From positions 91,520 to 155,519 of the forward strand of contig DATJKA010000047.1 of NCBI GenBank assembly GCA_035491815.1: a stretch of 64,000 bases of DNA, given 5' to 3'. The notes beneath the pieces were generated by a model, which saw only the letters and a list, made by a program, of their open reading frames with translations, had not been told where the DNA came from and did not search any database. The position numbers and the translations under genes were made by a program. This DNA is from Gemmatimonadales bacterium. GTDB lineage: Bacteria > Gemmatimonadota > Gemmatimonadetes > Gemmatimonadales > GWC2-71-9. Positions 37,361 through 42,590 of the stretch are shown piece after piece (positions within the stretch are counted from its first letter, which is position 1; every line of letters starts with the position of its first letter).

Positions 37361-37822
37361 TCAGCGCACGACCTCGAGCGACTTCTGCTCCAATCTCGCC
37401 TTGAGCTCCTGGAGGGTGTGGACGGTGCGCGCCATTGCCGATGCGGGCATACCCTCGATCGTGCGGGCGGCCAGGCGCCGCTCCAGCTGTCCCACGCGCA
37501 GCAGCACTTCCAATCCGTGCCGGGTGAGGGTGACTCGTACCCCCCTGTCGTCGTCTGGGTCAGTGTTCGTCTCGAGCAGGCCTTTGGCCTCGAGCCGCTG
37601 CACGAACGTGGTGGCGGCCGCGCGTGAGACCCCGAGCTCGGTCGCCACGTCGCTCGGCCGCGCGCCGTCGGGCCCGCCCAGATCGACGGCGGCCATGACG
37701 GCATGCGCGCGCTTGGACAGGCCGAAGCTCTTGTAGGCGCGATTGCCGGCCCGCTCGATCGCGTGATAGGCCGCGACCACGGCGTCGGTCAGCTGCAGCG
37801 CCAACTCGGAGCGATCCGACAT
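37361..37822 (-). CDS. MarR family transcriptional regulator
   Basis: 153 aa. Winged-HTH region RPSDVATELGVSRAATTFVQRLEAKGLLE...DPDDDRGVRVTLTRHG. Confidence 0.85.
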   Translation of the reverse strand: MSDRSELALQLTDAVVAAYHAIERAGNRAYKSFGLSKRAHAVMAAVDLGGPDGARPSDVATELGVSRAAATTFVQRLEAKGLLETNTDPDDDRGVRVTLTRHGLEVLLRVGQLERRLAARTIEGMPASAMARTVHTLQELKARLEQKSLEVVR

Positions 37823-37916: not shown

Positions 37917-38294
37917 TCAGCAGGTTTCCGACCAGTCGACTCTCGACTCCTTCTTGCAACGGAGGCATTTGAGCGATTCCGGTTTGCCGCTGAAATCTTG
38001 CCGCTCCTGGCAATGGGGACAGACCGCGTACGTCGTGGTGACCTCCTCCCCTTCCCTGCCGCCGAGGGTGGGGCGGAGCAGGCCGGTTCGAACGACGATG
38101 CTCCAGTGGTCGGGCGGCGTCTCGCGCACGGCGACGTCGATGCGACTCACGCGCACGGGCTTCTTGCGAACCTCGAGGACGACTTTGCCGTCGGCCGTCT
38201 CGTCGACGATCGGATACCAGGCGCCGCGACGCAGCACATCGGCGACGTTGTCGAGGCAGCGGGCCCAGCCGCGAGGGGATTCAGAAGATGCCAT
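37917..38294 (-). CDS. Uncharacterised zinc-ribbon protein, paralog A
   Basis: 125 aa. GWAR...LRRGAWYPIV...PPDHWSIV...TYAVCPHCQERQ...CLRCKK...W.E. It is a clear paralog of 38976-39365. Confidence 0.65.
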   Translation of the reverse strand: MASSESPRGWARCLDNVADVLRRGAWYPIVDETADGKVVLEVRKKPVRVSRIDVAVRETPPDHWSIVVRTGLLRPTLGGREGEEVTTTYAVCPHCQERQDFSGKPESLKCLRCKKESRVDWSETC

Positions 38295-38331
38295 GGGAGC
38301 GCCAATCTAGCACATCCCGCTAAATTGCGTT

Positions 38332-38910
38332 ATGCGCACGATCGGTACGATCACTCGGCTCCAGATTCAGCGCGGCTCGCTGAAACGCGGCGAGAAGCCC
38401 ACACGCGTATACGATCCCAGTCCCCTGCTCTCCGTCCCGGCGCTAAACGTCACCCCTGACGGCGCATTGGGCGGCACGCCCGACGGCACGTGGATCGTGG
38501 ATGTGCACCACCGGGATCATCCCCTGACCAAGAACGAGGATGGTTTGCACGGCATCTCGCTCGGGTTCACGTCGCACTACAGCGCGATGCGGGCGCACTT
38601 CGGCGAAAAGCTCGAGGTGGGCTGCGCCGGAGAGAATATCATTGCCACCGCCGACCGCCGCTTCAGTTACGACGACCTTGCGGGCGGCGTCGCGATTCTC
38701 TCACCGGACGGCCAGGAGCGGGTGCGGCTCAAGGTTCTGCAGGTCGCACATCCATGCCGCCCGTTCACCGGCTGGGCGTTAGGGGAGACAGTAGAGCCCG
38801 AAGAGCTGAAAAAGCATCTGCAGTTTCTCGATAATGGCATGCGTGGGTTTTACTGCACTGGTGAAGGGACCGGGACCGTGAGCTTGGGCGATCAGGTCGC
38901 GCTGATCTAA
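38332..38910 (+). CDS. MOSC-like beta-barrel domain protein
   Basis: 192 aa. The pattern LQIQRG...GCAGENI...HPCRPF...GFYC...G.V..GD resembles MOSC domains, with the conserved Cys in HPCRPF. This is from memory only. Confidence 0.5.
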   Translation: MRTIGTITRLQIQRGSLKRGEKPTRVYDPSPLLSVPALNVTPDGALGGTPDGTWIVDVHHRDHPLTKNEDGLHGISLGFTSHYSAMRAHFGEKLEVGCAGENIIATADRRFSYDDLAGGVAILSPDGQERVRLKVLQVAHPCRPFTGWALGETVEPEELKKHLQFLDNGMRGFYCTGEGTGTVSLGDQVALI

Positions 38911-38914
38911 ACGA

Positions 38915-38946
38915 CGAGGGGTGAGCCGATGTTTGCTCACCCCTCG
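38915..38946. terminator. Bidirectional stem-loop between convergent genes (12-bp perfect stem)
   Basis: CGAGGGGTGAGC - CGATGTTT - GCTCACCCCTCG. It begins 5 nt after the MOSC stop and ends 30 nt before the paralog B stop. Confidence 0.7.
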
Positions 38947-38975
38947 CTCCTCATCGCCCCTCAGCCGCTCGGCGT

Positions 38976-39365
38976 CTAGGACAACTCGTCCCACGCCATC
39001 GCCGCCGTCTTCTTGCAGCGATCGCACGTCATCTCATTCGTCCGCGCTTCGATGCCCTGCCGGTGACGGCAGGCGGGGCAGACGGCGTATGTCAACGGGA
39101 AGATGCGGCCGAGGCGTTCGATCACCCGCGGCTCGCACCGCACGATCGTCCACCGCTCCGGTGGATGATAGCGGATCTCGAGGAACCGGCGATCGACCGG
39201 TACGTTGTGCCGGTTGACGTCGAGGACGACGATGTTGCTCGAAGAGATGCGGACGACGGGGTACCACGCACCGCGCCGCAAGGTATGCGCGCCGGCCGGG
39301 CCGACGCGCGCCCAGCCTTTCACCTGCAGCCGCGTGGGCGTGACCATCCGATTGCTGCTTTCCAT
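38976..39365 (-). CDS. Uncharacterised zinc-ribbon protein, paralog B
   Basis: 129 aa. GWARV...LRRGAWYPVV...PPERWTIV...TYAVCPACRHRQ...CDRCKK...W.E. It lies 71 nt downstream of nrdJ on the same strand. Confidence 0.65.
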   Translation of the reverse strand: MESSNRMVTPTRLQVKGWARVGPAGAHTLRRGAWYPVVRISSSNIVVLDVNRHNVPVDRRFLEIRYHPPERWTIVRCEPRVIERLGRIFPLTYAVCPACRHRQGIEARTNEMTCDRCKKTAAMAWDELS

Positions 39366-39436
39366 GGCCTCTAGACTACCCTCATAGTCAAGGGACCGTC
39401 GTGACTGGAGTCACAGCGAGCAGGGTCGTGCTTGGA

Positions 39437-41908
39437 TCATCCGCATTCTGAGAAGCCGCAGACGTGACATTTCGCACATCCCTCGATGAACGCCAGCTGC
39501 GAGCCACAATCGGGGCATGCACCGATGAAATCTTGCTCCGGACCCCGCGTCAAGCGCAAGGCGGCGTCGCCGACCGGCCCCCGAACGACCTCGGGCGTCG
39601 CCGGGGCGGCGGACCTGGGAGTCTCGAGCAGGTCCTGCTGCACGCCCTGCTTCTCCTGCATCCACTTTTCGATCGCAATGCCGATAGCGTCGGGCACGGA
39701 CATCACTTTGTTCGGCCCGAGGCCCACCGCGCGGTCGGACGAGATGCCGCGGAGCTGCCGGTAGATCTCCGGCAACGGCACACCGGACCGGAGCGCGAGG
39801 GAAATCAGCCGGCCAATCGCCTCGACGTCCGCCATCAACGCCCCGCCCGCCTTGCCGAGTGACATGAAGACCTCGAACGGCTGGCCCTTGTCGTCCTCGG
39901 TGATCGTCACGTACATCGTGCCGAGCGGCGACTCGATGCGGCGCGTCGACCCCTTGAGGAGATCCGGCCGCGAGCGCTTCGCGCGCCGCTGCAGATTCTC
40001 CGCCTCGACGTCGTGCAGCCGGTCGCGGGTGCGGCCCAGCTCGGTCTCCAGCTCCGCAATACGGCTGAGCGCCTCGGCGAGCGCGTCCTTCCCTGCCTCG
40101 GCGGTCGTGTCCTGCACCTTCTTGGCGGTGGCGCCCGTCGACAGCACCTGATTTTCGCGCGCGCCGTCGCGGTACACCGTCACGCCTTTGCAGCCCAGCT
40201 GGTAGGCGTAGCGGTAGATCCGCTCGACGTACTCCTCGGTCGCATCGTGTCCGAAGTTGCAGGTCTTCGAGATCGCCGAGTCGGTGAACGCCTGGAAGGC
40301 GGCCTGCATCTGGATGTGCCATTCCGGCGTCACGTCGTGTGCCGTCACGAACACCTTCTGCCACTTCTCCGGCACGGCATCGAAGTGAATGTGACCGGCT
40401 TCGGCGATCTGCTTCATCAGGTCGTCCGAGTACCAGCCTTCGCGCTGCGCGATGGCGACGAAGTCCTCATTCACGTCGGGCATCAGCACGCCGGCCTGAT
40501 TGCGCATGAACGCGACGGCGAAGAGCGGCTCGATTCCCGACGAGCAGCCGGCGATGATGGAGATCGTGCCCGTCGGCGCGACCGTCGTGAGATTACAATT
40601 GCGCAGCTTCCGCATCGGGCGGATGCGCTCGCCGCGCGCGTCCTTGGCGCACGTCGCATCGGGTCCCCAGATGGACCGCTCCCACTCGGCGAACGTCCCG
40701 CGCTGCTCCGCCAGCTTCTCGGAGGCAACCTTGGACTCCTCGTCGATGAACTGCATGAGCTTGCGGCCGAGCGCGACGCCGGCATCCGAGTTGTAGGGGA
40801 TGCCGAGCCGCACGAGCAGGTCTGCCCACCCCATGATGCCGAGGCCGACGCGGCGGATCCGCTTCGCCAGGTCGTCGATCTCCTCGAGCGGGTACTTGTT
40901 CGCGTCGATGACGTTGTCGAGGAAGTGCGTGCAGAGGTGCACCGCCGTGCGCAGGCGATCCCAGTCGACCTGGCCGTCCTGCACGAACAGCCCGACGTTG
41001 ATCGACCCGAGGTTGCAAACGTCGTACGGGAGGAGCGGCTGCTCGCCGCACGGGTTCGTGGCCTCGTAGCTGCCGAGCTGCGGCACCGGGTTGTAGTGGT
41101 TCGCGCGGTCGATGTAGAACACGCCGGGCTCACCCGTCTTCCAGGCACCGTGCACGATCTGCTTGAAGACTTCGCGCGCATCGAGCTGCCCGAGGACCTT
41201 GCCGGTCCGGGGGTGGATCAGGTCGTACGACTTTCCCGCCTCGAGGGCGAGCATGAATGCGTCGGTGACCGCGACCGAAATGTTGAAATTCGTGACCTGG
41301 GTCAGGTCGTCCTTGCAGTGGATAAAGTCCATGATGTCGGGGTGGTCGACGCGCAGGATGCCCATGTTGGCACCGCGGCGCGTGCCGCCCTGCTTCACGA
41401 CGTCGGTGGAGGCGTCGTACAGCTTCATGAACGAGACGGGACCTGACGCGACCCCCATGGTCGACCGCACCACGTCGTTCTTGGGGCGCAACCGCGAGAA
41501 GGAGAACCCGGTGCCGCCCCCCGACTGATGGACGAGCGCCATGGCGCGCAGCGTGTCGTAGATCCCGGAGCGGCCATTGGAGAGGGCGTCCTCGACCGGC
41601 AGCACGAAACAGGCGGACAACTGCCCCAGGGGCCGCCCCGCGTTCATCAGGGTGGGCGAGTTGGGCATCCACACCCGGGTCGCCATCAGCTCGAAGAACG
41701 TCTCCGCCAGGCTTCCCACCGCGCGGGCGGAAGCGCCATAGGCCCCGTCGGGTGCCGCGATGGTCCGGGCGACCCGCAGGAACAGGTCCTCCGGCTTCTC
41801 CACCGGCTTGCCCTGATCGTCCTTCACGAGGTAGCGGCGTTCCAATACCGTGAGCGCGTTGGCGTTCAGGTCGAGCGAATGAGACGGACGGGCGTCAGAT
41901 GCAGTCAT
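39437..41908 (-). CDS. nrdJ: Adenosylcobalamin-dependent (class II) ribonucleotide reductase
   Basis: 823 aa. Motifs PNSPTLMNAG, LSACFV, NPCGEQPL and TVAPTGTISI. C-terminal zinc module CPDCGS...CAKCHVCGFSEC. Confidence 0.9.
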   Translation of the reverse strand: MTASDARPSHSLDLNANALTVLERRYLVKDDQGKPVEKPEDLFLRVARTIAAPDGAYGASARAVGSLAETFFELMATRVWMPNSPTLMNAGRPLGQLSACFVLPVEDALSNGRSGIYDTLRAMALVHQSGGGTGFSFSRLRPKNDVVRSTMGVASGPVSFMKLYDASTDVVKQGGTRRGANMGILRVDHPDIMDFIHCKDDLTQVTNFNISVAVTDAFMLALEAGKSYDLIHPRTGKVLGQLDAREVFKQIVHGAWKTGEPGVFYIDRANHYNPVPQLGSYEATNPCGEQPLLPYDVCNLGSINVGLFVQDGQVDWDRLRTAVHLCTHFLDNVIDANKYPLEEIDDLAKRIRRVGLGIMGWADLLVRLGIPYNSDAGVALGRKLMQFIDEESKVASEKLAEQRGTFAEWERSIWGPDATCAKDARGERIRPMRKLRNCNLTTVAPTGTISIIAGCSSGIEPLFAVAFMRNQAGVLMPDVNEDFVAIAQREGWYSDDLMKQIAEAGHIHFDAVPEKWQKVFVTAHDVTPEWHIQMQAAFQAFTDSAISKTCNFGHDATEEYVERIYRYAYQLGCKGVTVYRDGARENQVLSTGATAKKVQDTTAEAGKDALAEALSRIAELETELGRTRDRLHDVEAENLQRRAKRSRPDLLKGSTRRIESPLGTMYVTITEDDKGQPFEVFMSLGKAGGALMADVEAIGRLISLALRSGVPLPEIYRQLRGISSDRAVGLGPNKVMSVPDAIGIAIEKWMQEKQGVQQDLLETPRSAAPATPEVVRGPVGDAALRLTRGPEQDFIGACPDCGSQLAFIEGCAKCHVCGFSECG

Positions 41909-42038
41909 GCGAATCTCACGGCGAGTCGAGGTGAATTTTGGAAGTTAACGGAACGTGAGGGCCCAAGGTAGACTTGCGTCTCGCTCGCATCAAGACTCGA
42001 AATGGGTCGCGTCACTCCCGCACTTCCGAGTATTAACA

Positions 42039-42590
42039 TCACAAACTTGTTCGCTCGACGGGATAGGCACCGCTCCGGTGTCGCGCGGCCTGCTCGACGT
42101 AGTGCTCCCACGTTCCGCGAATTCTGGCGCGCAGACCATCATCCACGTGACGCACGACACGCGCCGGCACGCCCATCACGAGCGAGCCCGGCGGGATCAC
42201 CATGCCTTCGCGCACGACGGCCCCCGCGGCGATCACGCTGCCCGTCCCCACGCGCACGTCGTTCAAGAGAATCGACCCCATGCCGATGAGGCACTCGTCC
42301 TCCACCACGCAGCCGTGGAGGATCGCGCGATGCCCCACGCCTACCCGCGCGCCGATCAGCGCCGGCTTGCCTTCGTCCACGTGCACGATGGTGGCGTCCT
42401 GGAGGTTGGTCGCCTCGCCGATCACGATCGGTGCCATGTCGCCGCGCAGCACGGCATGGTACCACACGCTGGACCGGGGTCCCAGCATCACGTCGCCGAG
42501 CACGACGGCGCCCGGTGCAATAAACGCGGAGGGATCGACGCGGGGCTTGGGGATTACTGGCGTACCGGCTGGAAGGGCCACTGCACCCAC
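42039..42590 (-). CDS. Gamma-carbonic-anhydrase-like / left-handed beta-helix (hexapeptide repeat) protein
   Basis: VWYHAVLRGD...IGEATNLQD..IVHV...IGARVGVGHRAILHGC is typical of the YrdA/PaaY family. GTG start at 42590 or 42581. It overlaps the kinase 3' end by about 28-37 nt. Confidence 0.82.
   Translation of the reverse strand: MGAVALPAGTPVIPKPRVDPSAFIAPGAVVLGDVMLGPRSSVWYHAVLRGDMAPIVIGEATNLQDATIVHVDEGKPALIGARVGVGHRAILHGCVVEDECLIGMGSILLNDVRVGTGSVIAAGAVVREGMVIPPGSLVMGVPARVVRHVDDGLRARIRGTWEHYVEQAARHRSGAYPVERTSL

Follow-up and report, generated by a model that had tools for sequence, protein, structure and literature searches.

The locus and its two zinc-ribbon genes

The 64,000-nucleotide (nt) stretch of a Gemmatimonadales genome analysed here (the window) carries two genes for small zinc-ribbon proteins, referred to below as ZrA and ZrB, which lie on either side of a MOSC-domain gene just downstream of nrdJ, the gene for a class II ribonucleotide reductase (RNR). 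The Gemmatimonadota are abundant in soils and genetically almost unstudied. The family to which the two proteins belong (Zr) is a lineage-restricted variant of the small SH3-fold/zinc-ribbon proteins, with a probable regulatory role. The genes of the locus are as follows, with protein lengths in amino acids (aa):

ZrA: 37917–38294, minus strand, 125 aa; predicted SH3-like barrel and C4 zinc ribbon (C92/C95/C110/C113), A clade
ZrB: 38976–39365, minus strand, 129 aa; predicted SH3-like barrel and C4 zinc ribbon (C96/C99/C114/C117), B clade, downstream of nrdJ
MOSC-domain gene: 38332–38910, plus strand, 192 aa; between ZrA and ZrB, on the opposite strand
nrdJ, class II RNR: 39437–41908, minus strand, 823 aa; with its own C-terminal Cys-rich finger, upstream neighbour of ZrB
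marR-family regulator gene: 37361–37822, minus strand; downstream of ZrA, Pfam MarR_2 E 3e-11

The open reading frames of ZrA and ZrB are present with the coordinates and lengths that the preliminary description had given them, and the full-length alignment of the two products claimed there extends far beyond chance (BLASTP, 40% identity over 116 columns, E 5e-27), with all of the quoted motifs present (GWAR, LRRGAWYP, PP..W.IV, TYAVCP.C..RQ, C.RCKK and W.E). The distances reported earlier are likewise exact: 71 nt separate the nrdJ stop from the ZrB start, and the divergent ZrA and MOSC genes are 37 nt apart from start to start, with marR downstream of ZrA (94 nt from the ZrA stop to the marR start). 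Both Zr genes are under purifying selection, with dN/dS of about 0.16 for ZrB and about 0.26 for ZrA and with dS near saturation. Among the neighbours, the nrdJ product matches Pfam Ribonuc_red_lgC (E 1e-126) together with lgN and TSCPD, and the MOSC assignment is above threshold (Pfam PF03473, E 1.1e-8, 35.5 bits against a cut-off of 22.7, residues 80–189); the same protein gave no match in NCBIfam and none among the PDB sequences.

Predicted fold and searches for known families

AlphaFold2 models of the two proteins were built on an alignment of 60–62 sequences (pLDDT 84 and pTM 0.73 for ZrB, pLDDT 76.5 for ZrA). Both models consist of a five- or six-strand barrel, a short linker and a beta zinc ribbon, the linker being a helix in the ZrB model and a beta-hairpin insert in the ZrA model, and they match the N-terminal beta-rich domain followed by a CxxC...CxxC ribbon that had been proposed from the sequence. 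The four cysteines (C96/C99/C114/C117 in ZrB) are invariant in the 60–62 sequences and are located at beta-hairpins in both models, so that by structural class the ribbon is a predicted C4 zinc ribbon. The residues invariant throughout the family are W-A-R, L-R-R-G-A-W-Y, P..W..V, Y.VCP.C..R, C..C and W.

When compared by Foldseek, the barrel superimposes locally on SH3 domains, retroviral integrase C-terminal domains, KOW, Hfq and OapB, and the local matches of both models have probabilities of 0.9–0.99, TM scores against the target of 0.55–0.68 and rmsd values of 2–5 Å. Over the whole protein no significant match was found in PDB (best E 0.06) or BFVD (best E 0.002). Both models belong to the SH3-like barrel class by their predicted architecture, an assignment that depends on the predicted models since the Foldseek E-values are not significant.

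Membership in a known family is rejected, since nothing beyond sub-threshold or non-significant matches came from Pfam, NCBIfam, PADLOC, the PDB sequences or the Foldseek comparisons with PDB and BFVD. In Pfam, ZrA and ZrB produced sub-threshold zinc-ribbon matches alone, over the last 30–40 residues (at most 16.3 bits against cut-offs of 21–31). Among 60 members the best Pfam match (IBR_1, E 3.4e-5) covered only the ribbon, and there was no KOW, SH3, Sm, PhnA, RbpA or CarD match, the absence of KOW being judged at E ≤ 1 among the listed families. No NCBIfam family matched either protein, TIGR00244 included; PADLOC, with its models of anti-phage defence proteins, returned ribbon-level noise only (HEC-08 at E 0.004–0.05, and a Cas12f TNB ribbon at 7e-5 in paralog D of the source genome); and profile searches of the PDB sequences gave only a marginal match to the TiaS ribbon. 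The preliminary description, which could assign no named domain family, is borne out by these searches. A literature search on the Zr fold and its fusion architecture, and on NrdR in Gemmatimonadota, found nothing relevant.

How Zr differs from the closest known systems can be stated in some detail. Like the integrase C-terminal domain, the KOW domains of NusG, Spt5 and RfaH, Hfq/Sm and OapB, it is basic and is predicted to have a five-strand SH3-like barrel of about 60 residues; unlike them, it continues from this barrel into a C-terminal C4 ribbon and has WAR, LRRGAWY and PPxRW motifs of its own, and it differs from KOW and NusG/Spt5 in having neither a match to the KOW motif PF00467 nor an NGN domain. 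The CPxC-x14-CxxC spacing and the predicted beta-hairpin knuckles are shared with generic C4 ribbons (TiaS PF23783, IS1595, SprT, TFIIB/TFIIS and IBR), and many Zr members match generic ribbon models weakly over their C-terminal 30–40 residues. These scores are, however, below the curated cut-offs, the ribbons of the families in question are parts of unrelated proteins, and the N-terminal barrel of Zr is present in none of the ribbon families.

RbpA is a lineage-specific transcription factor that binds sigma and RNA polymerase (RNAP), and YjdM/PhnA are small zinc-binding beta-barrel proteins, the ribbon being N-terminal and the barrel C-terminal in YjdM. Zr is similar to both in its small size and in the combination of a predicted zinc site with a small beta-barrel, but its domain order is the reverse of that in YjdM. 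In addition, no PF13397, PF03831 or PF08274 match was present in the 60 members, and RbpA, PhnA and YjdM were not among the top 50 fold matches. Zr also resembles NrdR, as a predicted small zinc-ribbon protein that is genetically associated with RNR genes. NrdR has an N-terminal ribbon and an ATP-cone, whereas the ribbon of Zr is C-terminal, with no ATP-cone and no TIGR00244 match, and many NrdR-less genomes are also Zr-less.

Distribution and phylogeny of the Zr family

In a profile search the family comprised 2,204 clusters at 90% identity, or 557 representatives at 50%, and every named match was from Gemmatimonadales or from a Gemmatimonadota metagenome-assembled genome (MAG). The best 80 species-level loci are also all from Gemmatimonadales/Gemmatimonadota, except for one on a 2.5-kb contig binned elsewhere. 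This contig (L147), which carries a ZrB ortholog of 82% identity and was binned as 'Candidatus Limnocylindria', was most likely assigned to the wrong bin and probably does not represent a member from another phylum. Among the 201 phylum genomes sampled, 55 carry the family, with 1–19 copies each, and nearly all of these are in the window's own family (f1); beyond f1 there are three genomes in family f3 and one weak match in f4. The median isoelectric point (pI) of Zr members is 10.1 (n = 267). The source genome of the window has six copies, namely A and B in the window, C on contig C50, the tandem pair D and E on contig C102, and F on contig C20.

In the maximum-likelihood tree, SH-aLRT values were 98 for the B clade, 92 for a sister clade (B') and 95 for the A clade (21 rows). 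The A clade includes the sole Zr gene of genera g6, g7, g26 and g37, and in at least g6 the A-type gene is the first of an operon that also has an acyl-CoA-synthetase-like gene, and is divergent to HEAT/HD genes. By this phylogeny, ZrA and ZrB are anciently diverged paralogs of a lineage-restricted family and, since they fall into separate well-supported clades, the pair is not a local duplication. The earlier idea of a cassette formed by duplication around MOSC does not survive this result: a local tandem duplication is rejected, because the two clades are separate and old and the A clade holds single-copy genes in other contexts. Across genera, ZrB orthologs are 72–86% identical, as compared with 77–85% for NrdJ.

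Promoter-like signals and the palindrome upstream of ZrB

The non-coding elements of the locus are the following:

Inverted repeat, putative bidirectional terminator: 38915–38926 and 38935–38946, both strands; perfect 12-bp stem, 8-nt loop
ZrA–MOSC divergent spacer: 38295–38331, 37 nt; two back-to-back −10-like boxes
Palindrome (T)GTGAC-N4-GTCAC: 39401–39414, in the nrdJ–ZrB spacer, 36–49 nt ahead of the ZrB start codon; putative operator for a Crp-like factor
−10-like box TAGTCT: 39373–39378, minus strand; 7 nt ahead of the ZrB start codon and 22 nt downstream from the palindrome
Box TTTGTGATGT(G/T)AA upstream of nrdJ: 42031–42045, conserved
TACCTTG element upstream of nrdJ: 41960–41971, conserved

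The palindrome TGTGAC-N4-GTCAC is the only conserved element of the nrdJ–ZrB spacer; allowing no more than one mismatch, it is found at a constant distance in 13 of 14 B-clade genera and in 76 of 78 further species. Its four central letters vary freely, changes in the half-sites are uncompensated, and the spacer folds no better than shuffled sequence (z −0.6), a pattern that fits a protein-binding site, not an RNA stem. The reading of the palindrome as an RNA hairpin is thus disfavoured. From the position of the TAGTCT box, the palindrome centre would lie near −41.5 and the ZrB mRNA would be near-leaderless, and ZrB appears to have a promoter of its own. Paralog E on contig C102 is preceded by the same palindrome, the same 22-nt spacing and TAGTCT.

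In sequence (TGTGACTCCAGTCAC) the palindrome agrees with the Crp consensus TGTGA-N6-TCACA, and its putative binder is a Crp-like factor; the source genome has one clear Crp/Fnr-type helix-turn-helix protein (contig C47, 35906–36112). Exact copies occur 13 times in this genome, at least 8 of them intergenic, and three precede Zr units (B, E and the GroES-like–F operon), an enrichment in front of such units. Sites are located at C6:41195, C20:27131, C25:22165, C50:41216, C76:28292, C89:18743, C102:9818 and C130:89100, and at 39401 of the window.

Throughout the phylum the palindrome is over-represented relative to the reversed control, and it is equally so in Zr-less genomes; in one of these (G057), 12–14 of the 15 sites are in promoter positions. 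That it is promoter-located in a genome without Zr means that its binder is another, phylum-wide factor. Zr as the reader of GTGAC-N4-GTCAC is rejected accordingly, the motif being as frequent in Zr-less genomes and promoter-located in G057, and the palindrome before ZrB is part of a Crp-like regulon that spans the phylum and is not a Zr site. ZrB appears to be one part of this broader regulon and would be transcribed from its own promoter, under a Crp-like palindrome read by a different, phylum-wide factor. The small promoter-associated regulon comprises three Zr units, a divergent hybrid histidine kinase pair and several secreted proteins, and also takes in a DACNV/DAC-like (diadenylate-cyclase-type) gene.

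In the ZrA–MOSC spacer, the −10-like boxes are TAGATT at 38304–38309 (for ZrA, minus strand) and TAAATT at 38321–38326 (for MOSC), and an alignment of 14 genera shows GCAT-AACGnAATCTAnCnAAAnGTGnTATCATGGGG to be conserved. The two genes would share a common compact back-to-back promoter. At this spacer, as well as at ZrB and marR, −10-like boxes are only 5–9 nt before the start codons, and mRNAs with no leader or almost none may be frequent in this lineage.

The hairpin noted earlier between the MOSC gene and ZrB is indeed a perfect inverted repeat, of 12 bp around a loop of 8 nt; its folding energies are −26.2 and −28.8 kcal/mol on the two strands (z −5.9 and −5.0) and, placed between two convergent genes, it looks like a bidirectional terminator. 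No RNA element of Rfam was matched in the region. Upstream of nrdJ, the TTTGTGATGT(G/T)AA box and TACCTTG are conserved across about 35 genomes, Zr-bearing and Zr-less alike. The TACCTTG element resembles the Bacteroidetes-type −7 motif TAnnTTTG.

Domain fusions and a possible role in transcription

Fusions of Zr to other domains were sought among the 50%-identity representatives. In two clusters, P0274 and P0335, Zr directly follows a receiver domain (Response_reg, E 7e-21 and 3e-14) within one polypeptide, which is the position of a response-regulator output; such fusions are rare, and that of P0274 was called as a gene on a MAG contig from NCBI, where a stand-alone Zr gene immediately precedes it. 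In three clusters Zr comes after a sigma-70 region 2-like domain and occupies the position of region 4. In addition to the fusions, at least 8 members have C-terminal (D/E)RR-repeat tails. In the tail-bearing subfamily (P0231, P0236, P0284, P0316, P0338, P0309, P0301 and P0210) these tails are 70–100 residues long, and LRRGAWY is changed to LRLGAWY or LRWGAWY.

Taken together, the fusions, the Arg-rich tails, the basic pI and the lineage-specific expansion point to a transcription-linked nucleic-acid-binding domain, and Zr probably does bind nucleic acid and have a regulatory role. The interpretation that we favour, though tentatively, is that Zr may be a stand-alone regulatory module in transcription, with DNA as its probable ligand. 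ZrA and ZrB would then be separately transcribed proteins, each a small basic SH3-like barrel packed against a C4 ribbon, and the same module would act as the C-terminal output of receiver-domain response regulators and would stand where region 4 would be in ECF-sigma-like proteins, with some members Arg-tailed. The place of the pair after nrdJ and around MOSC would be an order inherited in one subclade, not an RNR operon. With its thousands of unannotated members, strong conservation, lineage expansion and rare signalling and sigma fusions, the family is a good candidate for a new regulatory domain.

Several observations weigh against a DNA-binding regulatory module. Peptide-binding domains have the SH3 fold just as typically, and every fold match is non-significant (best E 0.06); the fusions are rare, and the sigma region 2 match reaches only 22.1 bits against a Pfam cut-off of 24; the analysis turned up no operator that could be assigned to Zr; a high pI is common in high-GC genomes; and the nrdJ–Zr adjacency is kept in two clades (B and B'), so that a link to RNR is possible. 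Furthermore, the translational coupling of paralog F to a GroES-like gene is a hint of protein partners.

The start of paralog F overlaps the stop of the GroES-like gene (Cpn10, E 4e-11; overlap ATGGCTGA; L006 1492–2236, equal to C20:26400–27144). This overlap suggests translational coupling, and that at least some Zr members have protein partners. A Crp-like palindrome is present at the 5' end of the GroES-like–F operon.

Tudor/KOW/SH3-like folds and zinc ribbons are common as RNAP-binding modules, as in CarD, NusG, Spt4/5 and TFIIB, and Zr could dock onto RNAP or sigma without reading DNA, as a functional analogue of RbpA, CarD or DksA; in the sigma fusions it would take over from region 4 as the anchor on the beta-flap. 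The Sigma70_r2-like–Zr fusions and the failure to find a Zr-specific operator would both be consistent with such docking, as would the general tendency of these folds and ribbons to bind RNAP. We nevertheless consider it unlikely, since no RbpA, CarD or KOW model matched the 60 members, half of the genomes of the same family are without Zr, and as many as 19 copies per genome would be unusual for a general RNAP factor.

A role on RNA, as a post-transcriptional regulator or chaperone that uses a KOW/Sm/OapB-type surface with Arg-rich tails adding affinity, seems distinctly improbable to us. The fold matches do include Hfq, OapB–OLE RNA, Rpp29, ribosomal KOW proteins and an integrase–RNA complex, the (D/E)RR tails are like RD/RE-rich tails that bind RNA, the ribbon is weakly matched by that of TiaS, which binds tRNA, and the family is basic. 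However, all of these fold matches are non-significant, the receiver and sigma fusions fit transcription better, and there is no linked conserved RNA element, with no Rfam match in the region and an unstructured nrdJ–ZrB spacer.

Gene order around nrdJ and MOSC

The block STK–gammaCA–nrdJ–ZrB–(MOSC, opposite strand)–ZrA–marR–pyk–MBL–FBA is conserved in 14 genomes representing at least 8 genera. When the synteny was extended to 80 further species genomes, 71 of 75 loci had nrdJ 57–141 nt upstream of ZrB, and 71 of 71 had MOSC and ZrA downstream of it. The question raised in the preliminary description, whether nrdJ, MOSC and marR recur as neighbours, thus has a positive answer. marR follows ZrA in most B-clade genomes, with other DNA inserted between the two in L027, L029, L030, L031 and L036. 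Members of the sister clade B' are also directly after nrdJ, sometimes with MOSC and without ZrA.

The functional tie to class II RNR, MOSC or MarR that had been proposed from this arrangement is reduced to inherited gene order in one subclade. In 18 genomes from other genera of the same order, nrdJ has no Zr within 1.5 kb downstream. Most of these Zr-less loci keep STK–gammaCA upstream, and the NrdJ C-terminus is full-length in most of them, the intact copies aligning to the last residue. The four other paralogs of the source genome adjoin unrelated genes, as do the A-type single copies elsewhere. The tie is weakened by these 18 genomes and by the unrelated contexts, and further by the promoter-like region of ZrB and the hairpin between ZrB and MOSC. 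The nrdJ/MOSC linkage is real and, judged from the gene orders compared, is indistinguishable from vertically inherited gene order within one subclade. An obligate partnership with NrdJ is rejected as a general rule, given the 18 genomes in which nrdJ, mostly with a full-length C-terminus, has no Zr in the 1.5 kb downstream.

It could still be argued that ZrB (and ZrA) is a dedicated accessory, that is, a zinc or redox partner, an assembly factor for RNR or MOSC, or an nrd regulator that replaces NrdR. Zr is directly after nrdJ in the B and B' clades together (23 genomes of at least 17 genera, plus the 71 of 75 loci in further species), ZrB is as strongly conserved as NrdJ, no B-clade locus has B and A without MOSC between them, and NrdR is absent from the order that has almost every Zr match. 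We find such a role very doubtful, for the 18 genomes described above, mostly with the same upstream neighbours of nrdJ, have no Zr in the 1.5 kb downstream; the conserved box upstream of nrdJ is independent of Zr; ZrB has a promoter-like region of its own; the four other paralogs and the A-type single copies are located elsewhere; family f2 and about half of f1 have neither NrdR nor Zr; and the loss of NrdR is a single event, which deprives the co-distribution of statistical weight.

Absence of NrdR from the order

NrdR (TIGR00244), the universal repressor of nrd genes, was detected in 62 of the 201 genomes sampled, all in the phylum's other families (f4–f12), and is absent from the source genome and from every sampled genome of families f1–f3, which make up the window's order. 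Zr is essentially confined to this NrdR-less order, a coincidence that is suggestive but weak. A replacement of NrdR by ZrB is rejected on the grounds already given, Zr being missing as well in f2 and half of f1 and the nrdJ box being independent of Zr.

The most far-reaching version of events, in which Zr would be an unrecognised DNA-reading or RNAP-docking output domain that arose in Gemmatimonadales after the loss of NrdR, with ZrB, fixed directly after nrdJ, taking over control of the deoxynucleotide supply genes, is in our view a long shot; if true, one module would be used in three ways, as an independent regulator present in up to 19 copies, as the output of response regulators and in the role of sigma region 4. 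With NrdR missing throughout the order, a separate question is how ribonucleotide reductase is controlled in these bacteria.

Some nrdJ genes themselves gave interrupted matches. In G023 and G053 (L060–L063) the nrdJ match is split into pieces of different frames, and in G191, G038, G078 and G037 (L056–L059) two nrdJ matches meet around residues 605–611; these splits could be frameshifts, insertions or inteins.

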